Shown here piece after piece: positions 42,927 through 61,581 of a stretch of DNA of 64,000 nucleotides (position 1 is its first letter; each line of letters opens with the position of its first letter). A program made the translations under genes and the position numbers. Location of the stretch: NCBI GenBank assembly GCA_963661735.1, contig CAVLCF010000111.1, forward strand, positions 8,063 to 72,062, read 5' to 3'. The stretch is from a bacterium. GTDB taxonomy: Bacteria; Bacillota; Clostridia; Oscillospirales; Oscillospiraceae. Below the pieces are notes generated by a model, which was not told the origin of the DNA, made no database searches, and saw nothing but the letters and a program-made list of their open reading frames with translations.

Positions 42927-43006
42927 TTCGTATCCCTCCTTTTTTCCAAACACATATCACAGAATTTCATAAATATCCAGGTGGCAAAACGGAGAAAAAG
43001 CACCTC

Positions 43007-47103: not shown

Positions 47104-47182
47104 AATGGTATCCTCCTATATATCTTGTGAACCATACTGCATGATCCACTATTTTACTTGATTCCTACGACTCGCTGCTTAC

Positions 47183-47734
47183 TTAGGAATAAAACGTCCC
47201 AACAAATTTCTCAAACTGTCGCTTGTACTTCCTCGCCACCTGTTCAGAAACACCGCACCGTCTGGCCACTTCAGCAGTACAGGATGTCTTCTTTCCATCC
47301 ATATAGTAGTCCATCAGCATCGGTGCCCAATTGTGCCACTCTGCTACTGACTGCCGCAGCTGTGCGCATGTGAGGCGGCTTACCGCGGAATCTGCAATAT
47401 CTTCACTTTCAAGCCCCACATTTACTAAAATATCATCTTGCATGGTGAGCATGGACTCCACCGGGATATGCTCATACTGCTTTCTGTGTTGGAGGTTATC
47501 CCGAATCTTTCGCTGCTCCCGATCCCACTCCTGCCACGTCTCTTTTGTTGTTTCAATGAACATGCAGTCCACGCCTTTGTCATCCGGAATAACATCACGG
47601 ATAAAGTAGCGGCGCTGATCTGTGGGGAGCTTTGCGCATGCCTGGACAATCGCATGCCAGTCTTTCGCAGTCGTTTCTACCAGGCGGGTACTCCCGTCCA
47701 ACTGTTTTTCTTGAAGCAGATACGTTGTTCGCAT
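47183..47734 (-). CDS. Small sigma-70 region-4-like HTH protein (ICE regulatory protein)
   Basis: ATG 47734 follows AGGAGGG. C-terminal TSCTAEVARRCGVSEQVARKYKRQ resembles a region-4 HTH. Confidence 0.5.
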   Translation of the reverse strand: MRTTYLLQEKQLDGSTRLVETTAKDWHAIVQACAKLPTDQRRYFIRDVIPDDKGVDCMFIETTKETWQEWDREQRKIRDNLQHRKQYEHIPVESMLTMQDDILVNVGLESEDIADSAVSRLTCAQLRQSVAEWHNWAPMLMDYYMDGKKTSCTAEVARRCGVSEQVARKYKRQFEKFVGTFYS

Positions 47735-47905
47735 TCTTATATCCCTCCTGTGCAAAATAAAAAGCCGGGCGCAAAGACAGAGTATCTCTACTCTAACTTC
47801 ACGCCCGACCTATGTTGTCATACTGTACGTCAGCACAATAGACCTTACTCTGTGTCATGATACGATTCCAATATGCATTTTTCTTTGTTTACGGAGTACA
47901 AAGAT

Positions 47906-48133
47906 TTATGAGACTGTTGCCCGCCAGATATATGTGCCTGTGCCCTTAGCCGTTCTGTAATCGAGCTTTCCCTTTGCCCTGCGCAGAGAAAGATTTACAA
48001 CTGCGGTCCTACCACATTTCTGGCACTTGAGTTCGACCAAACCGCTGGCGGCGCTCATTTTATAACACAATATGCGCCCGCAGGTTTTACAGCGAACCTC
48101 CACTCGAATAGGTTGGTCTTCTTTTGAGACCAT
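47906..48133 (-). CDS. Com-like zinc-ribbon protein
   Basis: CKTCGRIL...CQKCGR pair of CxxC motifs. ATG 48133 lies 1 nt after the ImmA-like stop, following GAGAGGAG. Confidence 0.6.
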   Translation of the reverse strand: MVSKEDQPIRVEVRCKTCGRILCYKMSAASGLVELKCQKCGRTAVVNLSLRRAKGKLDYRTAKGTGTYIWRATVS

Positions 48134-48134
48134 C

Positions 48135-48842
48135 TCAACCAACTCCTCTCCTGGCTCTGGCCTCCGCAATCAGCTCATTTCGCTCCAGCAATCCAAGCTG
48201 CTCCATCCGGAAAGGTAACGCACTTCTGGATACCCCAAGCGCATCTGCCATATCGCAAAAGCACTGATATTTGTATTCTGAGTATTTCCGGCTCAAAACT
48301 TTCACCTTATCACCCAGACCATACACGAACATAGCATCTTTCACCGCGTCTTCAGGAAGCAGGAGGCACGCTGCCAATGCATCTGCCTGCCATTCTTCCC
48401 AATCCGCAATCTTTCTCTTGGGCGCATTGTTTCGTCTATAATCACAAAGCACACGCTGATTTGGTCCATAAATCTCCGGGTACAGATGATACAATATCTG
48501 GTGGGCACACTCATGTGCAATCGTGAAATTTCGACGTCCCTTTGCCTTTGGGGAATGGTTCAAACACGACTCAATCAAAACTGTCTTACCGTCCAAAATA
48601 AAAATGGATTTCTCATTGTTCTCGTCGAAAATCGGAACCATTACTTCATCCGGCGCTGTCATTCCTAAAATCGAATGATCAGAAGACAACTGGCGAAAGT
48701 AAACAGACAGCCCAAGCATTTCGGCTAACTCCATAGGATCAACACAATAGCAAAGCCTTTTGGGGGGAATGTAGCGCAGTTTGTACTGGTCTATGATCCG
48801 ATTTGCAATAGCTTCAATATCTATTTTTGATAGATACGGCAT
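48135..48842 (-). CDS. ImmA/IrrE-family metallopeptidase with a C-terminal HTH-like segment
   Basis: HEXXH in FTIAHECAHQILYH. C-terminal DMADALGVSRSALPFRMEQLGLL. ATG 48842 follows GGGAGAG. Confidence 0.72.
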   Translation of the reverse strand: MPYLSKIDIEAIANRIIDQYKLRYIPPKRLCYCVDPMELAEMLGLSVYFRQLSSDHSILGMTAPDEVMVPIFDENNEKSIFILDGKTVLIESCLNHSPKAKGRRNFTIAHECAHQILYHLYPEIYGPNQRVLCDYRRNNAPKRKIADWEEWQADALAACLLLPEDAVKDAMFVYGLGDKVKVLSRKYSEYKYQCFCDMADALGVSRSALPFRMEQLGLLERNELIAEARARRGVG

Positions 48843-48995
48843 AGCTTTCTCTCCCATTACGCAGTACTGATCTATGGTTTCGCTACACATTGGGTAGCTG
48901 TTTCTCTGTTCGTGTTTCTATTATAGAACGTATGTTCATGTTTGTCAAGAACTTTTTATGTCAACACTGCATTTTATGTTTTCTCGCTTTCGCCA

Positions 48996-50954
48996 CTACC
49001 TTCCATCTGAGATGTTGAATCTTTTTTTGAACCTTTCTCTTGCTTGTCTCCTGGCCTGCAAATTATCTGGACGATAGCGATCCGGGGGAGGCATTACACC
49101 ACCTGCTCTACAGAACCCGTCCATCTTTCTGCCTACCTGGGATTTCTCTTGGACGGTCTGGTGCAGACGTGCTTTTGCACTGGCTGGGGGAATATCATAC
49201 GGCACAACTTCTTCCGAGATCGACTCAAAAACCGCAACTCTCTGTGGGTATTTTTGATCCAGCGCCCGGAGTACTGTATCTTTTCCCGCATAGTGAACGG
49301 GGCGTGCGGCTTTATCTTCCAGCTCGCATTTTCCCATATTGAACTCTATTCCCCATTTTGTAAACAGCTTTAGCCTGGAAATAAATGGATGTGCTCCTGT
49401 TTTCATCACAATGAATGAGCCTGGACGCATCGACTTCAGCTCATCCGCACTCATCAAAGGTCGCTCTGTCATCTGCAAACTTTCCGATGCGTTCTCATGG
49501 CCCCGGCTTACAGAGCCGGTCATAACCGTTCGTGAGCCAAGTGCTTTGGAGATAATATCTGCTGTTTCGCTGGTTGGCGCAAATCCTCCAGCGATGGTAA
49601 GCTGGCAGTTGTCCTGAATAATTGCCGCTCCCTCTTTTCCGTAGTTCTTTTCAAGCTGCTGGTAACTCTGAATGATACTGACGATGCTCAGCTTTCTGGA
49701 ACGAGACGCGCTATACATCACCTCCGCAGAGCTGATTGGCGGCAGGGAGCCAAACTCATCGCAGTAAAACATAACACGGTTATCCAGCGCCCCGCCTTTT
49801 TCATCCGCAACAGTCAGAATCTCTCGGTACAGCTGCTGGATCAGCAGTGACACCATAAAGTAAGTATTCGGATTTTCCTCCGGTAAAACGACAAACACGG
49901 CACATTTCTCATTGCAGAATTTCTCCGCGTCTATCGCAGTATCAAAGCAAAGGATTTGTTCCAGTTCCGAATCCAGGAAAGCATTGAGCCGAGACATTGC
50001 CGTGGACATAACGGATTGCATGGCCTGTTCAGAGGTATTCAGCGCCGCACCCGCAAACCATCTGGCCTTATGCTCCGCTGGCAGGCGCTCCATCAGCAGT
50101 TGAAACTGATTCTTGTCTTTTACCTCAGACGGCCCAAGCAGGTCTTGAATCAGCTTGAATACAGAGACGATGTGACGCTGCTCCGGGTCCGCAAACTCAG
50201 CAATCAGAAGAATTGTCGAGGTCATCAAGCCCTCAGCGGCATCATAGAAGAATGCGTTTTGTCCATAAGAAGACGCATCTCCATCGCTGTAAATAAGTGT
50301 TTTAGCAACGATCTTGGCATACTTTTCTGCCTTAGCTTTATACGACAGTTTGGGATCTTGCTTGTATAGGTCCGTGTATTTGTTCACCAGATGCAGTAGA
50401 TTAAAGCTATCCGACCTTGTAGGGTTTCGCAAATCAATGACGGATGTCGAATACCCATAGGCTTTGCAGATGTTCATGTAATTGCGGTAGAGATCACCTT
50501 TGGTATCGGTAGTGAGAAAAGACATGCCCGCAGCGCAGGCATATTCCAGATTGGGGTACAGCCAAAATGCGGTTTTGCCACAGCCAGCCGCGCCGATCAT
50601 CATGGTGTGGACATCTCCTGTATCTACCAGAGCATACGTTGTTTTCTGAATGGAAACAGGAAAAGCACGACCACCATTTGAATTCAACCGCAGGCTATAT
50701 TTTGTTTGACAACCAACGACCACCCCCTGCGGTAACTTTAGCTGTGTACACTGGTTCCCCAAGCTGCGCCATCGCTGAGGTGTAAACGGAATTTTGCGAA
50801 ATGTTCGAGTCAGTTCCTGTGCCGTAGCAAAACGGGCCGCGCCATGCTGACCATCACCCACAGTTTTCGATTTGATACCATTTAGATTGTACATATGCGA
50901 TGCCGCGGAAATGAGTGCCAGGATTCCCAGCATACTTCCGCAGACAAGAATCAA
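48996..50954 (-). CDS. Type IV secretion coupling protein (VirD4/TraG family)
   Basis: N-terminal TM segment, Walker A MIGAAGCGKTA, and Walker B-like FYCDEFGSL. 652 aa. Confidence 0.85.
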   Translation of the reverse strand: MILVCGSMLGILALISAASHMYNLNGIKSKTVGDGQHGAARFATAQELTRTFRKIPFTPQRWRSLGNQCTQLKLPQGVVVGCQTKYSLRLNSNGGRAFPVSIQKTTYALVDTGDVHTMMIGAAGCGKTAFWLYPNLEYACAAGMSFLTTDTKGDLYRNYMNICKAYGYSTSVIDLRNPTRSDSFNLLHLVNKYTDLYKQDPKLSYKAKAEKYAKIVAKTLIYSDGDASSYGQNAFFYDAAEGLMTSTILLIAEFADPEQRHIVSVFKLIQDLLGPSEVKDKNQFQLLMERLPAEHKARWFAGAALNTSEQAMQSVMSTAMSRLNAFLDSELEQILCFDTAIDAEKFCNEKCAVFVVLPEENPNTYFMVSLLIQQLYREILTVADEKGGALDNRVMFYCDEFGSLPPISSAEVMYSASRSRKLSIVSIIQSYQQLEKNYGKEGAAIIQDNCQLTIAGGFAPTSETADIISKALGSRTVMTGSVSRGHENASESLQMTERPLMSADELKSMRPGSFIVMKTGAHPFISRLKLFTKWGIEFNMGKCELEDKAARPVHYAGKDTVLRALDQKYPQRVAVFESISEEVVPYDIPPASAKARLHQTVQEKSQVGRKMDGFCRAGGVMPPPDRYRPDNLQARRQARERFKKRFNISDGR

Positions 50955-51071
50955 AATTGTTTTTCCTTCCAGATGATACCCTCCTTTTCAGTTCAGAAGT
51001 ATAATTACAAATTCTGAACAATGGCTTCACATTACTACCCCAGCTACTCCCACATGTCAAGCGTCTAAACT

Positions 51072-51174
51072 TGAAATTACTTCTTGCTTTTTGCGGGTGA
51101 AATTTCAGAAAACCCGTTTTATTGAAATTTCATTCTTATAGGGACTTCAAGATGTGTCGTTTCACTGAAATTAC
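51072..51174. repeat. Four copies of TGAAATT(A/T)C in the region upstream of the coupling-protein gene
   Basis: Copies at 51072-51080, 51098-51106, 51123-51131 and 51166-51174. Confidence 0.6.
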
Positions 51175-51443
51175 CTTACAGGAAACCTTTACTCTGATTT
51201 CATTTTTTTACAGTTCGAGTTTTTCTTTTAATCATTATTCTTCAACACCCCCTAGTTTATCTTTCACTGCAAATGTTCATAATATGAAAACAGCAGTGAG
51301 TTTTATACACTTTGCCCGCACAAATTAGTAGTTCAAATTCTCATTATGGAATATTAAATTCCTTTTTCCTATTTAATCATTGACTATTTGCGTTATTCAT
51401 GTTACACTGCCTATAGAGTTTTCTGTGACGAGGAGGTCATTGT

Positions 51444-52859
51444 ATGGGTCAAACTACAGTAAGAGTCGAGAGTATCGAAATTGGCAATTTCAAAAATGTG
51501 AGCTTTGGCAAACTAGTACTTGAAAACACCAAGCCGGAATACAGGGCAAGCATTCTCGGTCTATACGGTCAAAACGGTTCTGGTAAGACCGCCTTGATCG
51601 ATGCCTTGGAATTGTTGAAGCTCGTACTGTCCGGAAAGAGTATCCCAAGTTTTTTTGCCGACTATATCAATGTAGATAGTGCATTCGCTACGCTTAAATA
51701 CGGATTCAAGGTTGAAGATAGTAGTAAAAAGAATATATACCATGTATTTTACGAAGTGTGCCTGCGTAAAGACATTAATGATAGCGAGTATAACACGAAA
51801 GAGATTGTGGCCAATCCCGCTCATAAAGTCACACTTTTTGATGAAGTATTATCCTATTCCTGCGAATCTAACGGCAAAAAAAGTCGCCTCTCTCCAATAA
51901 TCGATACGCGACCCACGTCAGAGCTCCCATTTATCCCGAAGGTCAAATACAATAAGCTTATTGGTCGAGAGAAAGAGGCTGCAACCAATCTTACTGTCGC
52001 TAAGCAACTTGCCTGTGAAACTTCACGCTCTTTTATCTTTTCCAAATCACTCCTTAACCAAATTCGTAAAAACTGCACAGATGTTAGCTGCCAATTCCTG
52101 ATAGAGAGTCTCATTTTCTTTGGGAATTATAGATTGTTTGTGATTAACACGACCAACACTGGGCTTATCAGCATGAACATTTTGCCGCTTGCTTTTAACT
52201 ACGCTGAGCATGGCACAGCTTCTGTTGGCAATCTTATGCTCAAACTTGACGAACCATCTTCAATCCCAGAGGGGGCACTCTCGCTTGTTCATAAAGTTGT
52301 CAACAGCATGAATATCGTTTTGAATCAGCTTATCCCTGGCTTAACAATCGATGTAAAAACTGTTGGGCAACAATTACAGTCTAATGGTGCCCGCGAATAT
52401 CTTGTTCAGCTTATTTCAAGGAAGAACAGCAAAGAGATTCCGTTGCGATACGAGTCCGAGGGTATAAAGAAGCTTGTATCTGTCTTACAGCTATTGATTG
52501 TTGCCTATAACGAACCTTGCATGACTGTTGCCATTGATGAGTTGGACTCCGGTATTTTTGAATACTTGCTTGGAGAAATTCTTCGCATTCTCTCTGAAAA
52601 AGGAAAGGGACAGCTGATTTTTACCTCTCATAATCTGCGCCCATTGGAAACTATTGATAAGAGCTTTATAGCTTTCACCACAACAAATCCGCATAACCGA
52701 TATATTCGCTTGTGTAATGTAAAGGCTACCAACAATCTCCGAGACTTTTACTATCGCGATATCGTCCTTGGCTCCCAAAGCGAGTCTGTCTATGAACCAA
52801 CAAACAATAGTGAAATTGCAATGGCCTTTAGAGAGGCGGGGATTCGAGATGACACGTAA
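51444..52859 (+). CDS. ABC/AAA_21-type ATPase (AbiLi / RloA / AriA-like), candidate defence ATPase
   Basis: Promoter TTGACT-17-TACACT (51380-51408), RBS GAGGAGG. Walker A GQNGSGKT, signature-like ESEGIKKL, Walker B VAIDELDSG, H-loop FTSHN. Confidence 0.75.
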   Translation: MGQTTVRVESIEIGNFKNVSFGKLVLENTKPEYRASILGLYGQNGSGKTALIDALELLKLVLSGKSIPSFFADYINVDSAFATLKYGFKVEDSSKKNIYHVFYEVCLRKDINDSEYNTKEIVANPAHKVTLFDEVLSYSCESNGKKSRLSPIIDTRPTSELPFIPKVKYNKLIGREKEAATNLTVAKQLACETSRSFIFSKSLLNQIRKNCTDVSCQFLIESLIFFGNYRLFVINTTNTGLISMNILPLAFNYAEHGTASVGNLMLKLDEPSSIPEGALSLVHKVVNSMNIVLNQLIPGLTIDVKTVGQQLQSNGAREYLVQLISRKNSKEIPLRYESEGIKKLVSVLQLLIVAYNEPCMTVAIDELDSGIFEYLLGEILRILSEKGKGQLIFTSHNLRPLETIDKSFIAFTTTNPHNRYIRLCNVKATNNLRDFYYRDIVLGSQSESVYEPTNNSEIAMAFREAGIRDDT

Positions 52860-53559
52860 AAAAATTGTCTTTGTTATAGTGGAAGGTCCCTCAGATGATG
52901 ACGCTCTTGGCGTAGTATTTTCAAAATTCTACAACAAAGATGAAGTTCATGTTGAGGTCATGCACTGCGATATTACAACAGATTTTGGGCGCACTCCAAT
53001 CGTTTCAAAAATTGGGAATGTGGTAAAAAGCTATGCGGGTCACACTTTTAAGCAAAGTGATTTCCGTCAGATTATCCACATCGTAGATATGGACGGAGCC
53101 TATATTCCAGACGAGAACATTGTTGAAGACCCAGATGCTACAAAACCGTACTATTCAACCACTGATATACGCACATGTAATAAAGTCGGAATTGAAAATC
53201 GTAATAGGCAAAAGCGTGATAACTTAAATCGTCTAACATCTATTTCTCAGGTATGGAAAATCCCTTATTCTGTTTTCTATATGTCTTCCAACCTAGACCA
53301 CGCACTTTATGGAAAGCTCAACAGCACGGATGACGAGAAAGAACACGACGCATTTTATTTTTCAATGAAATATAAAAATAACCTTCCGTTATTCATCCAA
53401 TTCATCTCCGAGTCCGAATTTTCCGTATGTAATGACTACAAGGAGTCATGGCGTTTTATAAAAGGGGCCTTACACTCTTTAGAGCGCCATACAAACTTGG
53501 GCCTATGTTTTACTACGGCTGAGCCTCACAGCGATAATTTTTCTACACCTAATGCATAA
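52849..53559 (+). CDS. RloB/TOPRIM-like protein, partner of the upstream ATPase
   Basis: ATG 52849 overlaps the ATPase stop by 11 nt. IVFVIVEGPSDDDAL (TOPRIM Glu) and IVDMDGAY (DxD). Confidence 0.6.
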   Translation: MTRKKIVFVIVEGPSDDDALGVVFSKFYNKDEVHVEVMHCDITTDFGRTPIVSKIGNVVKSYAGHTFKQSDFRQIIHIVDMDGAYIPDENIVEDPDATKPYYSTTDIRTCNKVGIENRNRQKRDNLNRLTSISQVWKIPYSVFYMSSNLDHALYGKLNSTDDEKEHDAFYFSMKYKNNLPLFIQFISESEFSVCNDYKESWRFIKGALHSLERHTNLGLCFTTAEPHSDNFSTPNA

Positions 53560-53771
53560 TTTTCAATCATATAGGACTACAGCAATCCCATAGGTAAACT
53601 TACCAAACTTCAAGAGCAGTTTAATTCTACTGAAAAAACCACATCACCAATTCTTTCTGAACTGGTCGATGTGGTTTTTCTCATAGATGCGTTTTCCAAC
53701 ACCCAAGCTTGGTTATTGTGAACTTACTTAGCCAAATTAGTCAACATACGTGTGAATGGACACAAACAAAA

Positions 53772-54098
53772 TTACTGCTCAATGAGTTTCCGGACGGCAT
53801 CTCTTCCCGAATCAGGTAATTCCAAGAACTGCATTGCCTCCTCCACAGAGAGGGACATCTTGGCCATAACATTACGGACTGCTCTTGCGCTCGATTCGAT
53901 GTTTCCTTCTGCACGGCCTTCTGCGCGGCCTTCTGCGCGGCCTTCTGCACGACCTTCATCCCGTTCAGCCATTACTAATTTCTCAACTTCTCTGCACATG
54001 GTGGTTACTCCTTTCACATTTTCTTTGAAATACCTTACGCGCTCGGCAAGAACTGGGTAGTGCATATCATTTGCTTTGGTACAGGAAAAATCATGCAT
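53772..54098 (-). CDS. Small conserved helical protein with an (EGRA)4 tandem repeat
   Basis: RVRYFKENVKGVTTMC block, then EGRAEGRAEGRAEGRAEG, then a helical tail. Resembles C-terminal tails of Rpn/YhgA-type proteins. Alternative start at 54065. Confidence 0.45.
   Translation of the reverse strand: MHDFSCTKANDMHYPVLAERVRYFKENVKGVTTMCREVEKLVMAERDEGRAEGRAEGRAEGRAEGNIESSARAVRNVMAKMSLSVEEAMQFLELPDSGRDAVRKLIEQ
53905..53957. repeat. 12-bp in-frame tandem repeat, 4.4 copies
   Basis: CCTTCTGCRCGR units at 53905, 53917, 53929 and 53941, plus a partial copy. Confidence 0.9.
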
Positions 54099-54151
54099 CA
54101 GCTTACCCAGAGGCGTATCGTTTTTGTGCTGTGCATTGACATATATGAGCT

Positions 54152-54670
54152 TTACTTTAGTAAGTCAAACAGACTGTATTCTCCTTTGGGAATATTGGCT
54201 GTCCTATGGTATTCTCTTATCGCCCTTACCAAAGTCTGCGGATTTTCGAAATATCCTTTCACGAAATCATATGTTTTTACATTGTGCATATGAAGATCCA
54301 CTTTACAAAATTCACTTGGCTTCTTTCCAGAACGTTTAAAGTGATCGTAAGCTCCCTCGCTGTGGATAATTAACATCTCTATTTCCGGAGCGGTTATAAC
54401 ATTGATAACATCTATTTTATGTTGATATGCTTTACTAAGACGGAAATCCTCTCGCCTGGAATCCAGAATTCGCACAACAGAAATCTGGTCTGAAAAGCTC
54501 TTACGTAAGTACCGCTCCTCAAACTTTTTTGCATCTCTGCAACGAATAACCTCGCCGTCCAGCATTTCTTCTCTGGTGAAAATCAAGAGCTCGTTGTCAA
54601 CTAATATGTCAATGATTGCCGTCTCTGCTGATCCTTCGCAAATACACGCTTTATATTTTGCCAATTTCAT
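54152..54670 (-). CDS. Small protein with an N-terminal TOPRIM/DUF4276-like CEGxxE motif, partner of the upstream ATPase
   Basis: KACICEGSAETAIIDILV N-terminus. 172 aa. Lies 12 nt downstream of the ATPase gene. Confidence 0.45.
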   Translation of the reverse strand: MKLAKYKACICEGSAETAIIDILVDNELLIFTREEMLDGEVIRCRDAKKFEERYLRKSFSDQISVVRILDSRREDFRLSKAYQHKIDVINVITAPEIEMLIIHSEGAYDHFKRSGKKPSEFCKVDLHMHNVKTYDFVKGYFENPQTLVRAIREYHRTANIPKGEYSLFDLLK

Positions 54671-54682
54671 TCAGCCGCCTCC

Positions 54683-55834
54683 TTAGTCGATTGAGGCGGC
54701 CAATTTCTTCTTCAGTCCCATATACGCTTCATATGCGGGTGTCGTTCCTGCCAGGTAGCCGCTTTGATATGCGTCACTCTTTTTGATATCATTACGCTTC
54801 AGCAGATAACTTAAATTTTCCACCGTAATTCCGTTTTGGTTCCTCACGATGTAAATTCCGTCATTCCGATCATATTCATCGAGCAGTTCCGGATAATGGG
54901 TAGTAAATATCAGCGTTCCACCTTTTGAGTTGAGACGGCTATCCATAAAAAAGCGCATCAAGGATGTTACTATTGCCTTGTTAAAATGGTTTTCGATTTC
55001 ATCAATTAGAAGATACCCCCCTGACTGAAGGACCTCCTTTACCATTGAAAATGTAATGATACCTTTGATCGTGCCCGATGACAAATACTGTTCAAGGTCT
55101 ACGGAATTGTTCAAAACGATCTCGTCTTTACCCCTGAATTTTAAATGGATAAATGTTTTTCCCTCTGTTTGCTCAAAACATAGCTTCTCAATTGTGGGGT
55201 CAAGGAAAGCGATCAGTTCCAGAGGAATATCATCAGTAACTGGCAAAATATTTACATTTGTATAAGAAAGCAGACTGAATACTTCCACTGTATCATTTGT
55301 GTTTTTGTTATGCGCAATGATAAAACTGACATCATCTGAAAGGTAGGCCTCTTTGCTGTTACGAAATGCTATTGGCTCTATTCCTGAAAAATCAGTCAAA
55401 TATTTTTTTGACTTAACACTTGCAATAGACTTTTCCCATAATCTTTCGGATATGATTGAGTACACAAAGTCTCCAGTCTTCGCTTTCTTAGACGCAATCG
55501 TTGTTTCCAAGCAGCAAATATACTTGCGATTATCATAAAAATAGATGCAGATTGTAGCCCTTTCAGTTCCACCGAGAATGTTTTTTGCTTCTGCGTGGTT
55601 GATAGGTTCATTTTTCACAATACTAAGTGCCAAGTTAATTGTCTTTAACACTGAAGTCTTGCCGGCTGCATTAATACCAATAAACGCACAGGTTGGATGA
55701 AGGTAATAGTTCCCCTCCATTTTGTATAGGCTTTCTTTGTCATCTTCGCTCATGCGCTGCTGGGTATAAAAACACACATCCAACTTTTCCTTAAATAACG
55801 GAATGCCCTCTGCTGTGATACGAAGTATTTTCAT
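54683..55834 (-). CDS. ABC/AAA_21-type ATPase, second candidate defence ATPase
   Basis: Start at MKILRI (55834; the track ORF extends to 55921, where a TATAAT lies). Walker A GINAAGKTS, signature LSSGTIKG, Walker B LLIDEIENH, FTTHY. Confidence 0.72.
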   Translation of the reverse strand: MKILRITAEGIPLFKEKLDVCFYTQQRMSEDDKESLYKMEGNYYLHPTCAFIGINAAGKTSVLKTINLALSIVKNEPINHAEAKNILGGTERATICIYFYDNRKYICCLETTIASKKAKTGDFVYSIISERLWEKSIASVKSKKYLTDFSGIEPIAFRNSKEAYLSDDVSFIIAHNKNTNDTVEVFSLLSYTNVNILPVTDDIPLELIAFLDPTIEKLCFEQTEGKTFIHLKFRGKDEIVLNNSVDLEQYLSSGTIKGIITFSMVKEVLQSGGYLLIDEIENHFNKAIVTSLMRFFMDSRLNSKGGTLIFTTHYPELLDEYDRNDGIYIVRNQNGITVENLSYLLKRNDIKKSDAYQSGYLAGTTPAYEAYMGLKKKLAASID

Positions 55835-55982
55835 GTGTCCATCGCCCTTTCTAAAAACGTAATTTTCGTTTTTATTTTCCCATGTCCACATTATACCCCA
55901 TCTGCTAGAAATTATCAACAAATTTTTTGATTTTATTTTCTACGCATTCATCCAGCAAAATTCAACTCATATTCTCTCAGTT

Positions 55983-56012
55983 GCCAGCGTGTGCAGCAAC
56001 GCACACGCTGGC
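55983..56012. terminator. 12-bp perfect hairpin downstream of the relaxase gene
   Basis: GCCAGCGTGTGC agcaac GCACACGCTGGC, with a T-rich run on the plus side only. Confidence 0.5.
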
Positions 56013-56036
56013 ATATTTTCGTTTTTAACGGGATTT

Positions 56037-58910
56037 TCACCCGATTCTCTGTCCATGCGCCTGCTTCTTTTCCGCAATCTTCCGTCGCAGCTTTCGGTCT
56101 ATCTTGCTCACATTCCTATGATCTTTCTCAATATTTTCTTGAAAAATCTGCGCAAAATTGGAAGCAAGTCGAATGCAAATAGCACAGATTGGTTGTTTTC
56201 CATAGCTCTCCAGTATCCTCTGCGCATAAATATTTCCTTGCTCCGCAGAAGCACTCAGTAATTTCTTCCCCAATTCTTCGTCCTTGTCAACATTCTGTCC
56301 GAACAGATACATCTTCCCAAGCTGATATAGAGCGTAGCTGTCCCCTTGGTTTCCGGCTTTCCATAGCCAATACAATGCGCGTTCAATATCTTGCGGCAGC
56401 GCATCACCAGTCAAGTAAAGCTTACCCAGCGCATATTGCGCCGGTGTAAACGTACCATTCGCCGCGGCTGTCAGCAGCTCCTCAGCACGTTTTACATCGA
56501 CAGGTATCCGTTCTCCAGACAACATTTCTCTCCCAAGGAAATATGCCGCATACGGATTCTTCTGCGCAATTGCGCACTCCAGCAATTCCAGTGCTTTTTC
56601 GGAATTAGGCTCAATAAGCTCTCCTTGAAGCAATGTCTTCCCCAGCAAATACTGTGCATGTTGATTTCCATGCTCTGCAGACCGCTCCAGCCAGAGGACT
56701 CCCTCCGAAGTATTCTGCAGAATCGCTTTCCCCTGCAAATAGGTTTTCCCCAGCAAGTATTGGGCATAATCATGATCCTTTTCCGCTGCCTGCGTCAGGT
56801 AGTCTATGGCTTTTTTCGGGTTTCTGTTTGGGTAATCCGCTCTGAGCAGCAGTTTACCCAGCCCATACATAGCGTCTGTATTCCCCAAGTTCACTGCCTT
56901 TGTAAAGTATCCAGCAGCCAAGTTCAAATTTACATCTGTCCCCGTGCCAGCTAAATTCATGCTGCCGAGGCGATAATACAACCGATCATCGGCCATCGTC
57001 TGCTCGATACGCAGAAACCCCTGATACGCCAGTGCATTCCATTTCTGAGCCGCAGCTGCATCTACAGCAGTCCCGCACCCATCCGCATACATTTTTCCAA
57101 GCTGATATTGTGCGTAAGCGTTCGGCCTTTTTTCATCCGCAGCCGCTATGGTGAACAGTTTGAATGCGCGAGTATCATCTTTTTCTACACCTTGTCCCCG
57201 ATAGTATTGACCCCCAAGAGCGTAAGCCGCAAGCGAATTTCCGGAAGCCATTGCCTTTGCAAACCACTCCGCGGATTGTTTATAGTCCTGCTCTATGCCA
57301 TGCCCAAGCGCATACAGCTTGCCGATCCGGTACTGCCAGTAGCCTTTCTTCTTGTCTGTCCGCTCCATTTGCAAGAAGGCATTATAGGCACGAGTGAACC
57401 AGTGCTGCGCCGTTGCTTCATCCGTACAGCCTCCCAAACCAGACATATACATTTTTCCTAAGTCATACATCGCCAAACCATTGCCCGCTTCTGCCTCTTG
57501 CGTCATGAGCATAAGGGCTTCCGCATGATCCGGCTGCCGCTCCTTTGTCCCATAAAGGGACTCCCTAGCCGCTTGGTATTGCTCTGACCACCAGCTCCCA
57601 CTTTTCTTCACTGGCGGCGGATTGTTTCCAGCTGAATGGTAATTTTGTGATTCTACTTCTGGTATGCTATCCGGCATATCTATCTCCTCTGACGTTAAAA
57701 CGACAGGCAATTCATCGCCGGCATCTGGAACTACTTTGGGAAAAATGTGTGCCAGATCCTCTTGTGCGGCGATTTCTTCAGCAGGAATCAGAGGTGTGTC
57801 TGGTAAGATGTTCAACGCCTCATGAATAATAATATTCTTGATGGCGTGGAATGTCTTATTCTGTGATAGGGGAACACGCTTCTCCGCACTTTCCTGATAG
57901 GTCTGTACAACTAGGTAACGCTGGTCATACCACAGTGCGTACAGCCTGCCAAGCCTTTCGTCCTTCATCAATTCATCCATAATGGCATTGACCAAATTTC
58001 TGGCGGGTGCGGACAAGTATCCATATACTTTTTTACCTTTGGTCGCCTGCAGCCTTGCGGCAAGCTGACGCAGCATCAGCGCCACTGTATCATCACGGTA
58101 AGGGTTTTCGTTCAAATCAGCGACAATTTGAGTAACCAAAGCTTTAACGTCCGCATTGAATTCATTGCGATACCTGGTTTGCGTGTCATAAATCTGAATC
58201 AAATCCTGGTGGAATATCGCTCTGGCAAAAGATGATTTCAAATTGAGCAGACCTTGTTTGGTCATGTATGGATCTTTCCCCACAGAATAGGAAATGATAT
58301 GGCAATGCGGATGGTGTCCCTCATTATGAAATGCCGCATACCATCGCAGGTCTTCAATGGGGATATCCATGGCCTTTGCTAGTTCGTCGGCCTGCTCTCG
58401 GAGCATATCACGCCACACTTCACCCTTTTCATATCCAAGTCTGGCCGCGTCTTCCCGCCGCAGTGACAATATTTGTGTCATCAAAATACCGTCGTGTTCT
58501 GCCACCTCTTTTGCTACCTGATTCAAATTTATTGGAACATCCGCATCGGTGAATAACCCATGGGAACCAAATCTCTGGACACGAGGGCGGTTTGCAATGT
58601 ATCGAACATAGTTTTCACGAGTATCAACGCGATCAACATTTTCCTCTATACTATGCGTAATAAACTCCGAAGCATTTCCTTGTGTCGGGCCATTCAAGTA
58701 GTCTTGATATTCATAGCTGTCAGCAGTATCCGGAAAATCCTTTAGAAGCTGCTCGATCATTTTCTTTTGCTGAACAGTGACCGGAAGGGATTTCCAGCTG
58801 TCATCTATTTTCTCCACGCCATCTCGTTTGGCAATATACTTCACCAAATTCTGATTATGATTCCTCGCCCCCGGTTTCAGATATCTCCATTTGAGGATGA
58901 TTTTTGCCAC
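56037..58910 (-). CDS. MobL-like relaxase fused to a long C-terminal Sel1-like repeat array
   Basis: N-terminal KWRYLKPG...VKYIAKRDGVEK and WYAAFHNEGHHPHCHII (His-rich relaxase motif). From ~aa 470 onward there are about a dozen repeats of the type YxLGxMYxxGxGxxxDxxxAxxWFxKA. Confidence 0.8.
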   Translation of the reverse strand: MAKIILKWRYLKPGARNHNQNLVKYIAKRDGVEKIDDSWKSLPVTVQQKKMIEQLLKDFPDTADSYEYQDYLNGPTQGNASEFITHSIEENVDRVDTRENYVRYIANRPRVQRFGSHGLFTDADVPINLNQVAKEVAEHDGILMTQILSLRREDAARLGYEKGEVWRDMLREQADELAKAMDIPIEDLRWYAAFHNEGHHPHCHIISYSVGKDPYMTKQGLLNLKSSFARAIFHQDLIQIYDTQTRYRNEFNADVKALVTQIVADLNENPYRDDTVALMLRQLAARLQATKGKKVYGYLSAPARNLVNAIMDELMKDERLGRLYALWYDQRYLVVQTYQESAEKRVPLSQNKTFHAIKNIIIHEALNILPDTPLIPAEEIAAQEDLAHIFPKVVPDAGDELPVVLTSEEIDMPDSIPEVESQNYHSAGNNPPPVKKSGSWWSEQYQAARESLYGTKERQPDHAEALMLMTQEAEAGNGLAMYDLGKMYMSGLGGCTDEATAQHWFTRAYNAFLQMERTDKKKGYWQYRIGKLYALGHGIEQDYKQSAEWFAKAMASGNSLAAYALGGQYYRGQGVEKDDTRAFKLFTIAAADEKRPNAYAQYQLGKMYADGCGTAVDAAAAQKWNALAYQGFLRIEQTMADDRLYYRLGSMNLAGTGTDVNLNLAAGYFTKAVNLGNTDAMYGLGKLLLRADYPNRNPKKAIDYLTQAAEKDHDYAQYLLGKTYLQGKAILQNTSEGVLWLERSAEHGNQHAQYLLGKTLLQGELIEPNSEKALELLECAIAQKNPYAAYFLGREMLSGERIPVDVKRAEELLTAAANGTFTPAQYALGKLYLTGDALPQDIERALYWLWKAGNQGDSYALYQLGKMYLFGQNVDKDEELGKKLLSASAEQGNIYAQRILESYGKQPICAICIRLASNFAQIFQENIEKDHRNVSKIDRKLRRKIAEKKQAHGQRIG

Positions 58911-58921
58911 ACATGATCACC

Positions 58922-59326
58922 TTAATCTCTCTGGAACCGAACGATATCATCGAGATTTAAGGAGCCGTTGATTGCTTTCACATCATCCACACACATCCGT
59001 CTGACCTCTCGCAGTGTCCGCTCATCAATATCATTTGCGGCAGCAATAATGTGCTGGAGGATAGCTAATTCCACTGTGTTCTTAAAAAGCAGATTGGAAA
59101 GCCGGTGTTCCAGAGATCCCAGCGCTCCTTTCATTGTAGAGATCACAATATTAGGAAGATATCCACTATAGTCCTTGGCGTTCAAAAATCCAATGTAGAA
59201 CTGTATCGCCGCGTCAATAAATTCAGACCTGCTCCTACATCCATGAAGCTTATACTGCTTCTCAACCAATTCCGCAGTTTTGGGTAGCACATAGGCAGTG
59301 ATCTTTATCTTCTGTTTTTCCATCAC
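58922..59326 (-). CDS. Ribbon-helix-helix relaxosome accessory protein (MobC-like role)
   Basis: KITAYVLPKTAELVEK...SRSEFIDAAIQFY RHH signature. Ends 11 nt before the relaxase start. Confidence 0.6.
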   Translation of the reverse strand: MMEKQKIKITAYVLPKTAELVEKQYKLHGCRSRSEFIDAAIQFYIGFLNAKDYSGYLPNIVISTMKGALGSLEHRLSNLLFKNTVELAILQHIIAAANDIDERTLREVRRMCVDDVKAINGSLNLDDIVRFQRD

Positions 59327-59356
59327 ACCCTCCTCTCAAAGATTCTTTGCGCTCCG

Positions 59357-59580
59357 TTTCCCTAATTTTGGAAATAGGGGAAATTCAAACATACAGCTGC
59401 GGGTCAAACCCCAAAGTCTCCCCAATAATTGGCTTTTCACTAAGGCAAGAAACCGTTTTGTCTCCAAGGCTCTTAAAACGGGGTTATTTTGTCTCCAACC
59501 TTGAAATCCGAAAAAGCCGCATGCGACCAGCGTTGCTGGGCGCTGTTCCTTGGGCTGGAGGCTCAAAAGTCTCCAGCCCT
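59357..59580. other. Candidate origin of transfer (oriT): repeat- and hairpin-rich non-coding region
   Basis: TTTTGTCTCCAA at 59456 and 59487. AAAGTCTCC at 59413 and 59566. Inverted repeats GGGCTGGAG/CTCCAGCCC (59552-59579) and TTTCCCTA/TAGGGGAAA (59357-59385). Lies directly upstream of the RHH-relaxase genes. Confidence 0.45.
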
Positions 59581-59755
59581 TATTCCTGCAAACCTTTCGT
59601 ACCGCAATTTCTGCCCTCGAATCCCGAACTTTTTTCGTCATTGCACGATTCCGTTTCTGCTTCGGTTTACCGTCCAAAGCACCTTGTTAGGTGGCCGTGT
59701 TCCACCAGCACGGAACAGAGCCGACACGCGGGCACCAGGCGGCCCACAGCTGTGG

Positions 59756-60046
59756 TTATTCTTCCAGCGGCTCCTCGACTTGGGCTGCCGGGATAGCCAT
59801 GGAATTGTCATCCTCCACAATTCTTTTCCGGTACTTCCGTGGCCTTATAACCGGTGTCTGTTCACCATCCTCACCGTTTACCATGCCGATGTACTCCCGA
59901 ACCCCTGCGGGAACTATCTTTGTATATAGCGTTTCAAATATTTCAACAATCTCATCTTCAAGCTTGCTGTCTTTTCGCTCCAGGTAAATCCGAAGCGCTT
60001 TCACTTTTTCTTCATCGACGGAAATGGTTAATGTGGTTTTTCGCAA
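59756..60046 (-). CDS. Small conserved ICE protein of unknown function
   Basis: 96 aa. MRKTTLTISVDEEKVKALRIYLERK has a beta-strand/helix (RHH-like) start and an acidic tail. Confidence 0.5.
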   Translation of the reverse strand: MRKTTLTISVDEEKVKALRIYLERKDSKLEDEIVEIFETLYTKIVPAGVREYIGMVNGEDGEQTPVIRPRKYRKRIVEDDNSMAIPAAQVEEPLEE

Positions 60047-60229
60047 ATCATCGCTCTCCTTTCGTATCGATTATTTTTCTGCGGATAGGGTATCATTCCC
60101 TTATTGAGAAGTTCTACATATATGTGTTAAACTTCTCAGCCGAACATTTGACTTCTTCTCTGGGGTATGCTATTCTATTGATAAGTATTACACCATATTG
60201 CAAAACTTATCAATGAAAGGATGGGCTAT

Positions 60230-61537: not shown

Positions 61538-61544
61538 CCATCCG

Positions 61545-61581
61545 AAAGCCTCTGCGGTCACGAATAAACCGCAGGGGCTTT
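61545..61581. terminator. Bidirectional hairpin terminator between convergent genes
   Basis: AAAGCCTCTGCGGT / ACCGCAGGGGCTTT arms with one bulge. Confidence 0.55.

Follow-up and report, generated by a model that had tools for sequence, protein, structure and literature searches.

The question raised by this locus is whether two small gene pairs, carried together in an AT-rich islet (51000-56036) among the transfer genes of a mobile element, are phage-defence cassettes. The window, that is, the whole stretch of DNA analysed, comprised 64,000 nucleotides from a bacterium of the family Oscillospiraceae. On balance, the carrier appears to be an integrative conjugative element of gut Clostridia with the islet as its accessory cargo, and this cargo probably consists of two independent, self-contained cassettes, each combining an ATPase with a stand-alone TOPRIM-type partner.

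Location and composition of the islet

The flanking genes, the two pairs (A1 and B1, pair 1; A2 and B2, pair 2) and their putative expression signals were as follows.

48996-50954, minus strand: TraG/VirD4-like T4SS coupling protein, left flank (Pfam T4SS-DNA_transf 3.4e-40, TraG-D_C 1.9e-28)
51380-51408, plus strand: promoter-like site upstream of pair 1, TTGACT-17-TACACT with extended TG (consensus scan 9/12, a consensus match only)
51431-51437, plus strand: ribosome-binding site of pair 1, GAGGAGG (read from the sequence)
51444-52859, plus strand: A1, ABC-type ATPase, 471 aa (AAA_21 5e-14, SMC_N 9e-9)
52849-53559, plus strand: B1, TOPRIM-like partner, 236 aa, DUF4276/Mad4/HEC-01B-like (alignments and sub-threshold profile matches)
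54152-54670, minus strand: B2, RloB/AbiLii-like partner, 172 aa (alignment of 70 diverse relatives; hhalign to RloB)
54683-55834, minus strand: A2, ABC-type ATPase, 383 aa from the ATG used by homologues (AAA_21 5.7e-14)
55890-55918, minus strand: promoter-like site of pair 2, TTGATA-17-TATAAT (consensus scan 11/12); the A2 start codon lies 56 nt downstream
56037-58910, minus strand: MobL-family relaxase, right flank (MobL 2.8e-22; Sel1 x9 1.3e-61)

The islet lay between the coupling-protein gene and the relaxase gene, whose product carried a C-terminal array of nine Sel1 repeats. The AT-richer block reported here in the preliminary description was borne out: the GC content was 0.397, compared with 0.478 and 0.470 in the element DNA to either side, and 0.512 in the window overall, and was the minimum among all 5,037-bp segments of the window (mean 0.513, standard deviation 0.047). 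The islet DNA looks foreign. The coordinates given earlier for the two tightly coupled pairs, 51444-53559 (plus) and 55834-54152 (minus), were also confirmed, as was their convergent arrangement across a repeat-containing ORF.

In related elements, the slot between relaxase and coupling protein was a variable cargo site that held chloramphenicol acetyltransferase, Abi_2, Schlafen/AlbA_2, Fic, metabolic enzymes or an integrase, and most of these elements lacked the ATPase and partner genes of the islet. Of the defence hotspot proposed earlier, the presence of two defence-type cassettes stands, whereas the slot itself is a general cargo hotspot in these elements and is not dedicated to defence.

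The two ATPases

Both ATPases probably belong to the AAA_15/AAA_21 clade of ABC-type ATPases and have intact catalytic motifs. These were Walker A G42-T49 (K48), the signature ESEG, Walker B D365/E366 and an H-loop in LIFTSH for A1, and Walker A G53-T60 (K59), signature S252/G254, Walker B D278/E279 and H313 for A2; all four motifs were invariant over 21 diverse relatives. AbiLi ranked first among the PADLOC families for both proteins, followed by AriA, PtuA, mad3, HEC-01A and GajA. A1 matched AbiLi at 1.4e-24, AriA at 7e-16, mad3 at 1e-9 and HEC-01A at 2e-7, and A2 matched AbiLi at 4.9e-32 and AriA at 1.5e-15. The comparison with split OLD-family systems (AbiL, PARIS) drawn earlier was apt. 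The nearest solved relatives by profile were PtuA (4e-10) and Thermus OLD (3e-6).

A1 and A2 shared Walker-type motifs alone (BLASTP E = 0.018 over 49 residues), and no likeness was detected when B1 and B2 were compared directly. The two copies are mutually unrelated, as had been supposed.

The partner protein of pair 1

Judged from its sequence, B1 is probably a divergent DUF4276/Mad4/HEC-01B-like protein with a TOPRIM-type acidic site formed by Glu12 and Asp80-x-Asp82. Its ORF spanned 52768-53559, and the start used by the family was the ATG at 52849, giving an 11-nt overlap with the end of A1; the N-terminus reads ...FVIVEGPSDDD. Family alignments revealed invariant E12, G13, D41, D80-x-D82, G83, S146, L149, H151, W201, S210 and N216, and E12 and D80xD82 were unchanged among relatives down to 27% identity. 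In the predicted secondary structure, strands alternated with helices and the acidic residues lay at strand ends. A C-terminal extension of ~130 residues was also conserved (YYMSxNLDH ... W ... HSLERHTN).

Sub-threshold matches of family members were found to DUF4276 (26 of 36 members in one set and 9 of 30 in another), to HEC-01B and mad4 of PADLOC (12/30 and 9/30, respectively) and to Toprim and OLD-like_TOPRIM. Alignment of the family with RloB by hhalign gave a probability of 63%, an E value of 7e-5 and a score of 37.6, whereas the 150 column shuffles averaged 13.6 +/- 2.8 (z about 8.7) and none of them reached the real score.

The partner protein of pair 2

B2, whose N-terminus reads ...ACICEGSAE, began 12 nt past the A2 stop, with GGAGG within the spacer. 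It is probably a divergent, minimal RloB/AbiLii-like protein with a predicted acidic site of Glu12, Glu16, Asp70 and Glu98. The family comprised 1,012 representatives at 50% identity; among the 70 diverse ones aligned, E12, G13, E16, D70, T93, E98 and K132 were invariant and P95, E96 and L100 nearly so. The resulting motifs are those of genuine RloB (CEGxxE; hhhD; [ST]xPxhExhhhxH). B2 lacked the second Asp of DxD, and the aligned RloB proteins likewise kept just the first Asp invariant.

Two of the 70 relatives matched the AbiLii profile (9e-5) and one matched RloB (1e-3). When the family was aligned with 10 PGAP-annotated RloB proteins by hhalign, all three motifs were brought into register over 97 columns with a score of 21.8, a value reached in 0 of 150 column shuffles (null 12.2 +/- 2.2, maximum 19.5). 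Since the hhalign probability was just 3%, the case for a link to RloB depends on the register of the motifs, on the shuffle control and on genomic context: distant plasmid relatives of A2 were followed by a gene for an RloB protein in 10 of the 10 cases examined.

Strength of the TOPRIM assignment

The likeness of the partners to TOPRIM proteins is at the profile level and sub-threshold. For B1 and B2 themselves, no curated model (Pfam, NCBIfam, PADLOC) matched at E <= 0.01, the best being mad4 at 0.055, and B2 gave nothing against AbiLii or RloB at E <= 0.1 (PADLOC, NCBIfam) or E <= 10 (Pfam). Members of the two families, however, matched four different models of the TOPRIM clan, and hits to any other family were spread over fewer members. 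Searches of PDB sequence profiles with the partners were empty or gave chance matches. Foldseek searches of PDB and BFVD, made with weak AlphaFold models (pLDDT 57.6 and 75.4; shallow alignments), returned no TOPRIM protein but generic alpha/beta sandwiches (lumazine synthase, PTS IIA, dehydrogenases). Both partners belong to large families without annotation in any database.

The earlier description of the partners as TOPRIM-like was therefore upheld by sub-threshold profile likeness and by the real scores, which beat all 150 shuffles in each family, but not by Foldseek. Of the profiles proposed for comparison, RloB, DUF4276 and Toprim were matched at the family level, whereas neither B1 nor B2 matched DUF4435; in PADLOC, both ATPases matched AbiLi, but the partners reached no model threshold. 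Since no partner model was significant for the window proteins, it is not possible to place either pair in a named system, as was stated at the outset.

The generic folds returned by Foldseek, the lack of a curated TOPRIM model at threshold and the single Asp of B2 where DxD is expected would also fit non-catalytic adaptors or regulators with a Rossmann-like alpha/beta fold and acidic residues, the function residing in the ATPase. Such a role is quite unlikely, because the acidic residues at TOPRIM positions were invariant over identity ranges of 27-57%, both families aligned with genuine RloB in motif register and family members matched the TOPRIM-clan models, while the structure models searched were of low confidence. 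A TOPRIM-type partner is the preferred reading.

Conservation and distribution of the pairs

In 79 of 80 species loci, the gene just upstream of a B1-type partner encoded an A1 homologue, and pair 2 was kept together on three plasmids and in every IMG/VR locus with sufficient upstream sequence. The dN/dS ratio of 0.06-0.07 for both pairs indicated purifying selection. Because both recur as pairs in many genomes and are under such selection, they are more than chance neighbours. The pairs were found in many unrelated contexts, their families were common on conjugative elements and megaplasmids, and the cassettes were also present in IMG/VR viral contigs; many other loci were chromosomal, with no obvious mobile element. 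The distribution was patchy and horizontally spread over Clostridia, Bacilli, Negativicutes, Spirochaetes, Fusobacteria and Actinomycetota.

This distribution bears on the idea that the genes are housekeeping DNA-repair or recombination factors, a RecF/Rad50/SMC-like ATPase with a TOPRIM protein, acting in replication or transfer of the element. Weak SMC_N and RecF matches and a double-strand-break-repair GO term on one RefSeq relative point that way. However, these matches reflect generic ABC-ATPase similarity, and a housekeeping role is highly improbable for genes that lie in AT-rich, foreign-looking DNA, are patchily and horizontally spread and are absent from most related elements, pair 2 even from sister copies.

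The genes directly adjoining pair 1 in 48 species included no recurring defence genes. On a Bacillus plasmid, a B1-type pair adjoined a PARIS-like ATPase + DUF4435 pair, and in Bifidobacterium megaplasmids, pair 2 types occurred amid Lar, toxin-antitoxin and methyltransferase genes. On conjugative megaplasmids, ArdC, Lar and methyltransferase genes adjoin relatives of pair 2; this, together with the slot position between relaxase and coupling protein, raises the possibility that the modules act in conflict between elements, attacking plasmids as they enter or competing conjugative elements, or sensing anti-restriction proteins delivered by conjugation, rather than acting on phages. Plasmids are targeted by ABC ATPase systems such as Wadjet, and an anti-restriction protein is what PARIS senses (PMC11464382). 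Still, nothing specific favours this distinctly improbable explanation: the cassettes also occur in viral contigs and in many non-conjugative contexts, and the slot holds unrelated cargo in related elements.

Comparison with known systems and putative mode of action

In OLD, Gabija, PARIS, AbiL and MADS3-4, the effector that accompanies an AAA15/21 ATPase is of the TOPRIM-Old, DUF4435, RloB or DUF4276 type (PMC11464382), and the TOPRIM superfamily includes DUF4276 and RloB (PMC12065111). The two pairs resemble the AbiL / MADS3-4 / PARIS class of phage-defence systems and are probably divergent variants of the known class combining an ABC ATPase with a stand-alone TOPRIM nuclease.

In lactococcal AbiL (AbiLi + AbiLii) and in RloA-RloB, an AAA_21-type ATPase gene is likewise followed by a small RloB-type TOPRIM gene; AbiLi was the top family for both window ATPases, B2 has the three RloB motifs, and the A2 relatives examined pair with RloB. 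However, B2 is shorter (172 aa, as against about 180-235 aa) and has no counterpart of the basic leader with which the aligned RloB proteins begin, and the window ATPases cover the AbiLi profile partly (positions 50-280 of 326). Pair 1 resembles Mad3-Mad4 of MADS and HEC-01 (ABC ATPase + DUF4276-type TOPRIM) in its mad3 and HEC-01A matches and in the E...DxD site of B1, but all matches were below curated thresholds, those of the B1 family to mad4, HEC-01B and DUF4276 included, and the pair stands alone, outside any 8-gene MADS locus or Hma system. The PADLOC candidate HEC-01, which of the systems tested is nearest to pair 1, conferred no protection in E. coli.

[quoted passage not shown] P2 OLD, GajA and retron-associated PtuA-type proteins share the ABC ATPase clade, and OLD and GajA use a TOPRIM effector, but theirs is fused to the ATPase; in addition, Gabija requires a UvrD-like helicase and Septu/PtuA has an HNH nuclease partner. 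The window pairs have neither the fusion nor the helicase nor the HNH partner.

The best-understood mechanistic model is PARIS, in which the AriA hexamer sequesters the nuclease and a trigger frees the tRNA-cleaving TOPRIM protein. Nuclease activity, complex formation, trigger, target and a defence phenotype may be inferred for the window pairs by analogy with PARIS, OLD and AbiL. An ATPase oligomer would hold the bound partner inactive and serve as an infection sensor; a trigger derived from a phage or plasmid, or the resulting damage, would alter the ATPase state; and the metal-dependent TOPRIM nuclease, freed or switched on, would cleave an essential nucleic acid, so that infection is aborted or the cell killed. 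Known targets are tRNA for PARIS and P2 OLD and DNA for Gabija.

Insertion of pair 2 and intervening features

The features between and beyond the pairs were as follows.

53601-55980 (no strand): 2.38-kb segment absent from sister copies (blastn against L109, L110, L113 and L114; junction alignment)
53633-53680 (no strand): bidirectional terminator-like hairpin, with an A-run on one side and a T-run on the other (sequence read; terminator scan 53666-53646)
53772-54098, minus strand: small ORF of 108 aa that contains an (EGRA)n repeat (12-nt x 4.4 in-frame tandem repeat, 53905-53957, TRF)
55982-56023, plus strand: strong terminator hairpin, 13 pairs (9 GC) plus T-run (scan; sister-element alignment)

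Pair 2 is mobile and sits within an insertion relative to the sister elements. Five sister copies of the element that were sampled (L109-L112, L114) lacked the 2.38-kb segment, which contains the first hairpin and the middle ORF along with the pair 2 cassette. The promoter-like site of pair 2 falls in a ~1.8-kb block (54151-55940) conserved wherever pair 2 occurs. In the natural variant L113, B2 was lost and A2 was intact, the pattern expected if B2 is a toxic effector and A2 is harmless alone.

A variant that retains the ATPase and lacks the putative toxin would also suit an addiction module that stabilises the element or plasmid, with the partner as toxin, the ATPase as neutraliser and no dedicated anti-phage role. 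Both families are frequent on conjugative elements and megaplasmids, and PARIS itself acts like a toxin-antitoxin pair (PMC13064643). Nevertheless, addiction as the main function is unlikely, since many loci are chromosomal with no obvious mobile element nearby, the sister elements persist without pair 2, an ABC ATPase of 380-470 aa would be unusually elaborate for an antitoxin, and in characterised relatives toxin-antitoxin behaviour is the defence mechanism and not an alternative to it. Defence remains the preferred reading.

The repeat-containing ORF is unrelated to, and no part of, either pair: it was not found beside pair 2 in any other locus. Its family comprised 326 homologous clusters, mostly small proteins of 63-184 aa, and its best model match was a weak, C-terminal one to TIGR01784 (E 0.036). 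The hairpin at 53633-53680 separates the two convergent units, and that at 55982-56023 begins 1 bp past the right insertion junction and directly follows pair 1 in the sister elements.

Organization of the islet

Between the coupling-protein and relaxase genes of the conjugative element, an AT-rich islet with two convergent gene pairs, each consisting of an ATPase and a small partner, had been proposed in the preliminary description. The GC content of the segment 51000-56036 was 0.397, below that of every other 5,037-bp window in the 64 kb (mean 0.513, sd 0.047), and that of the flanking element DNA was 0.47-0.48. The two flanking genes, both pairs and the repeat-containing ORF between them were confirmed at the following positions.

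Features of the islet and its flanks
48996-50954, minus strand: coupling protein of type IV secretion, left flank (T4SS-DNA_transf 3e-40, TraG-D_C 2e-28)
51444-52859, plus strand: ATPase A1, 471 aa, first gene of pair 1
52849-53559, plus strand: small partner B1, 236 aa; the family start is ATG 52849, overlapping the A1 stop by 11 nt
53633-53680: terminator-like hairpin between the convergent pairs
53772-54098, minus strand: middle ORF, 108 aa, with an in-frame 12-nt repeat (4.4 copies, 53905-53957) encoding (EGRA)n
54670-54152, minus strand: small partner B2, 172 aa, after a 12-nt spacer that follows A2 and contains GGAGG
55834-54683, minus strand: ATPase A2, 383 aa, first gene of pair 2
55918-55890, minus strand: promoter-like site of pair 2, TTGATA-17-TATAAT
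56037-58910, minus strand: MobL relaxase with nine Sel1 repeats, right flank (Pfam matches)

Both pairs were compact cassettes of 1.8-2.1 kb, each preceded by a promoter-like site and followed by a terminator hairpin. Longer ORFs starting from TTG 52768 for B1 and from TTG 55921 for A2 were considered and ruled out, because all homologues begin at the ATG. A1 and A2 had nothing in common beyond Walker-type motifs, and the N-terminal motifs ascribed to the small proteins were found as VEGPSD in B1 and CEGSAE in B2.

The middle ORF had a GC content of 0.486, unlike its AT-rich neighbours, and belonged to a family of 326 clusters, mostly of 63-184 aa, with hardly any Pfam annotation. It was rejected as a third part of pair 2 because it was missing beside pair 2 at every other locus, and as a fragment of an Rpn-family transposase because it has its own small-protein family and matched TIGR01784 only with E 0.036.

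ATPases A1 and A2

Both ATPases passed the Pfam threshold for AAA_21 (53.5 and 53.3 bits; cut-off 27) and gave weaker Pfam matches to SMC_N, AAA_15 and AAA_23. The best PADLOC model for both was AbiLi PDLC02335 (4.9e-32 for A2 and 1.4e-24 for A1, covering approximately positions 50-280 of the 326 in the profile), followed by AriA, PtuA, mad3, HEC-01A and GajA. A PDB search with a profile of 21 diverse relatives returned PtuA (4e-10), Thermus OLD (3e-6) and the heads of SMC and Rad50. In the alignment of these 21 relatives, G53, N55, G58, K59, S252, G254, D278, E279 and H313 (A2 numbering) were invariant, and no variation was seen in Walker A, the Ser and Gly of the ABC signature, the Asp-Glu of Walker B or the His of the H-loop. 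Judging from these motifs, it was concluded that A1 and A2 are ABC ATPases of the AAA_15/21 clade and are predicted to be catalytically competent. This clade is the source of the sensor subunit in OLD, Gabija, PARIS, Septu, AbiL and MADS3-4 (PMC11464382; bioRxiv 10.1101/2024.01.29.577857).

Partner proteins B1 and B2

B1 of the window matched nothing in Pfam or NCBIfam and only mad4 in PADLOC (E 0.055). Its family comprised 1,596 clusters at 90% identity, none with a Pfam domain, and was represented in the one-genome-per-species collection by 220 stretches, mostly from Lachnospiraceae and Oscillospiraceae and also from Erysipelotrichaceae, Selenomonadaceae and Sphaerochaeta. More distant relatives (27-40% identity) were found on plasmids of Bacillus, Lysinibacillus, Paenibacillus, Ruminococcus and Cetobacterium and on one Clostridioides phage-plasmid. 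In 30 sequences with identities down to 27%, E12, G13, D41, D80, D82 and G83 were invariant, as was a C-terminal set (S146, L149, H151, N158, K164, W201, S210 and N216). The Glu after strand 1 and the DxD after strand 3 that characterize TOPRIM are thus present in B1 as E12 and D80-x-D82.

When members of the B1 family were scanned singly, matches below the curated thresholds recurred: DUF4276 (PF14103) in 26/36 and 9/30 members (best E 6.5e-4), Toprim in 5/30 (0.02), OLD-like_TOPRIM in 3/30 (0.045), and the PADLOC models HEC-01B in 12/30 (1.7e-3) and mad4 in 9/30 (2.7e-4). The curated thresholds of DUF4276 (PF14103), Mad4 and HEC-01B were not reached by B1. Comparison of the B1 profile with ten RloB proteins annotated by PGAP (hhalign) gave a probability of 63%, E 7e-5 and a score of 37.6, with the region from strand 1 through DxD aligned; column-shuffled controls scored 13.6 +/- 2.8 (maximum 25.8), and 0/150 reached the observed score. 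[quoted passage not shown]

B2 of the window matched nothing meaningful in Pfam, NCBIfam or PADLOC. Its family comprised 1,970 clusters at 90% identity, and an exhaustive HMMER scan yielded 1,012 representatives at 50% identity. The invariant residues in an alignment of 70 diverse relatives (35-57% identity) were E12, G13, E16, D70, T93, E98 and K132, and P95, E96, I97, L100, P118 and S119 were nearly so. With respect to TOPRIM, E12 and D70 were invariant in these 70 sequences and the second Asp of DxD was not conserved; it was likewise not conserved in the ten RloB proteins compared.

These RloB proteins were collected by a tblastn search of PLSDB with A2, in which distant relatives (approximately 22-31% identity) were located on plasmids of Proteobacteria, Bacteroidota and Clostridium and their downstream neighbours were taken. 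In 10/10 cases examined, the gene after the A2 relative was annotated as an RloB family or domain protein. Three motifs common to the ten proteins, CEGE(K)TE, VVFDxD and SxPCFExWLLLHF, had similarly spaced counterparts in B2, in unchanged order: CICEGSAE, RILDS and TAPEIEMLIIH. The three motifs were aligned by hhalign over 97 columns with a score of 21.8, E 0.015 and a probability of only 3%; shuffled controls scored 12.2 +/- 2.2 (maximum 19.5; 0/150 at or above the observed score), and the reversed control scored 12.7. This alignment lies below conventional significance and is suggestive of a relationship. Among the 70 B2 relatives, matches were obtained to PADLOC AbiLii (2/70, 9e-5), Pfam RloB (1/70, 1e-3), OLD-like_TOPRIM (2/70) and DUF4276 (1/70).

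AlphaFold2 models were built from shallow alignments of 34-36 close homologues and were weak (pLDDT 57.6 for B1 and 75.4 for B2). In the B2 model, strand 1 ended at E12, strand 3 ended just before D70, and E96 and E98 were located on the helix after strand 4, an order of strands and helices compatible with TOPRIM. The predicted order of secondary-structure elements in both low-confidence models was consistent with this fold. Foldseek searches with these models against PDB, and for B2 also against BFVD, yielded only generic alpha/beta sandwiches with TM of about 0.2-0.3; a TOPRIM protein with a meaningful score was not among them. Sequence-profile searches of PDB with four alignments (labelled A1-A4, of which A3 held B2 relatives and A4 held B1 relatives) were empty or gave chance matches (MEF2, chorismate mutase). 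The proposal that both partners are TOPRIM-like was supported in part, by the acidic motifs and by sub-threshold profile matches that recurred in the B1 family; a fold match was not obtained from the weak models. B2 was judged to be a divergent, minimal RloB/AbiLii-like protein, with lower certainty than attaches to B1, and pair 2 probably also combines an ABC ATPase with a TOPRIM-like partner.

Direct homology between B1 and B2 was also considered. The hhalign probability was 0.2-8.5%, and the score of 26.0 exceeded those of the shuffled profiles, but a reversed-sequence control reached 23.5. Because this control scored nearly as high, homology of the two partners is not claimed. The N-terminus of PDB 2p62 (PH0156, a hypothetical protein of Pyrococcus horikoshii), IKLIIVEGKTDESFF...VVRDVD, resembled the motifs of the B1 family at a non-significant level (E = 1); this structure may serve as a template for B1.

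Comparison with named systems

The preliminary description had assigned neither pair to a named system, and this held, since the partner models failed for both. The likeness to AbiL and PARIS that it had noted was upheld; the ATPases matched AbiLi and AriA models, and neither partner of the window matched AbiLii or DUF4435. Compared with AbiL, which in PADLOC and DefenseFinder consists of AbiLi and AbiLii, both pairs contained an AbiLi-type ATPase, but B1 and B2 of the window gave no AbiLii or RloB (PF13707) match at E <= 0.1 in PADLOC and NCBIfam or E <= 10 in Pfam. The arrangement of pair 2 is like that of AbiL/RloAB; because the AbiLii/RloB model test failed, it was not filed as AbiL.

The arrangement of pair 1 resembles the Mad3-Mad4 module and candidate HEC-01, but its matches were below the DUF4276, mad4 and HEC-01B thresholds, and its two genes stand by themselves, outside any larger locus. 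In a published test, HEC-01 gave no defence phenotype in E. coli. In the case of PARIS (AriA and AriB), no DUF4435 or AriB match was found for either partner or its relatives; a DUF4435 protein of Bacillus mycoides matched the B1 and B2 HMMs with E 0.011 and 0.1, respectively, in a search of three sequences. Class 1 OLD (P2 Old) is a fusion of ATPase and TOPRIM, whereas separate genes are present here. In class 2 OLD (Gabija), a UvrD-like helicase adjoins, whereas the islet contains no helicase; GajA models gave weak N-terminal matches to the ATPases. PD-T4-4 has a nuclease of the PD-(D/E)XK type and was for this reason rejected as a relative. [quoted passage not shown]

Linkage, selection and spread of the pairs

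In 79/80 species-representative loci, the end of the A1 homologue lay no more than a few bases from the start of B1; in the single exception, the contig ended there. This arrangement was kept in all plasmid relatives examined. Upstream of the B2 homologues, an ATPase of 380-415 aa with the Walker A motif GINA[SA]GKT (GLNATGKT at one locus) ended 7-35 nt before the partner in all IMG/VR loci with enough upstream sequence, and the same order was found in six metagenome contigs and three megaplasmids. The DNA block travelling with pair 2 extended from 54151, at the B2 stop, to approximately 55940, just past the promoter-like site. The dN/dS values against close relatives were 0.059 for A1, 0.074 for B1 and 0.065 for A2. 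Both pairs are units under purifying selection.

Megablast of the islet against PLSDB gave zero matches. Around pair 1 in 48 other species, 148 ORFs represented 145 different Pfam families, none of them recurrent, and these neighbourhoods neither supported nor refuted a defence-island location. On the Bacillus mycoides plasmid NZ_CP136374.1 (locus L097, 3596-8409), a B1-type pair was followed after approximately 400 bp by a PARIS-like pair of AAA ATPase and DUF4435 protein and then by XerS, placing two split ATPase/TOPRIM systems in tandem.

Several other settings were observed. On the Enterococcus faecalis conjugative plasmid NZ_CP090559.1 (locus L236, 2182-4140), a distant A1-like ATPase was followed by a 195-aa partner with the motifs VIVHGKSE, in which His replaces the TOPRIM Glu, and IIVDVDN; from these motifs, the catalytic site of this partner may be altered or no longer active. 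Mobilisable Rop-type ColE1-like plasmids of 3.9-4.3 kb from E. coli, Salmonella and Enterobacter (loci L099 and L107) carried, as nearly their sole cargo, an ABC ATPase and RloB pair that is a distant relative of pair 2; E. coli or Salmonella contributed at least 11 of these plasmids, in addition to the Enterobacter one (L107). On metagenome contigs L005-L010, the pair 2 homologue was flanked by a 567-aa SWIM-domain protein and a 448-aa membrane protein, the start of which overlapped the B2 stop, and large TPR and adenosine-deaminase-like proteins came next. This setting may be a larger island; no piece of it is present in the window.

Host element and cargo slot

The same element was seen in other gut metagenomes at 94-95% nucleotide identity, with the gene order integrase, C5 methyltransferase, helicase, M78 peptidase, coupling protein, cargo, MobL relaxase and then further genes. 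From the matching gene order of annotated sister contigs, the regions 41775-48890 and 58922-63952 contain genes for an integrase, a C5 DNA methyltransferase, a Helicase_C_2 helicase, an M78/IrrE peptidase, an AAA_14/DUF4143 ATPase, a PAPS-reductase-like protein, DUF4314 and a pentapeptide-repeat protein, and the element continues past the right end of the window. The nine Sel1 repeats of the MobL relaxase (56037-58910, minus strand) lie in its C-terminal half; such an array on a relaxase is unusual, and the relaxases of related elements range from approximately 440 to 980 aa, so that the Sel1 tail is variable.

Five sampled copies of the element carried pair 1 only; compared with them, a 2.38-kb segment (53601-55980) is inserted in the window. 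Immediately to the right of this insertion lies a strong terminator hairpin (55982-56013), and the shorter copies have this hairpin directly after pair 1. One metagenomic copy (L113, 10711-12215) carried pair 1 and an intact A2 (383-aa ORF) and lacked 968 bp corresponding to 53714-54681 of the window, that is, B2 and the middle ORF, and is a natural effector-less variant. Loss of B2 with A2 intact, a single observation, agrees with a model in which the effector is toxic and the sensor harmless.

The islet had been presented as a candidate defence hotspot. The order of relaxase and then coupling protein was kept in 58 more remote relatives of the element, whose relaxases were 35-92% and coupling proteins 55-97% identical, mostly well short of the upper limits of these ranges, and the gap between the two genes ranged from 826 to 7,884 bp (<=960 bp in 20 loci). 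The gap contained 36 unrelated protein clusters, for example chloramphenicol acetyltransferase, Abi_2, Schlafen/AlbA_2 with HATPase_c_4, Fic, DUF3990, integrase, HIT, isochorismatase and ATP-grasp enzymes; a single locus among them, from a copy of the same element, contained pair 1. Because the cargo in relatives was mixed and unrelated, the slot is a general variable cargo site that is not dedicated to defence.

Possible function of the pairs

The pairs are compact cassettes with intact ATPase motifs, conserved acidic sites, strict linkage and tight coupling of the genes, horizontal mobility and purifying selection. By analogy with characterized systems, ABC ATPases with TOPRIM-like partners acting in defence or abortive infection are, on balance, the favoured interpretation. 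As suggested by PARIS, OLD and AbiL, an ATPase oligomer would keep the TOPRIM partner inactive (PMC11464382, PMC13064643), a trigger derived from infection would free the partner or switch it on, and the partner would then cleave tRNA or DNA, by which the infection would be aborted. Validation would widen the known range of TOPRIM effectors and would mean that a defined cargo slot of conjugative elements in anaerobes houses such systems; otherwise, the pairs are unremarkable accessory genes whose architecture is of a familiar type. The compact cassettes and the natural copy of the element without the pair 2 effector provide experimental handles.

A more far-reaching proposal is tentative and rather doubtful: B1 and B2 could represent two abundant unannotated effector families, each of which, together with its ATPase, would make up a new functional subtype of split OLD-like immunity, responding to triggers and attacking nucleic-acid targets of its own. 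B2 would then be a minimal RloB-like nuclease of approximately the size of a bare catalytic core, and B1 would bear a new C-terminal domain. Because the pairs ride on conjugative elements, they may, under the same proposal, sense anti-defence proteins from incoming mobile DNA, as PARIS senses Ocr.

Split ABC-ATPase/TOPRIM systems (PARIS, AbiL, MADS3-4) are an expanding and mechanistically informative class of immunity. Both partner families are large and common in gut Clostridia, and because Pfam, NCBIfam and PADLOC do not recognise them, they are probably overlooked in defence censuses of the gut microbiome. The combined range of the two families was found to include human- and animal-gut Firmicutes, Bifidobacterium megaplasmids, Spirochaetes and Fusobacteria.
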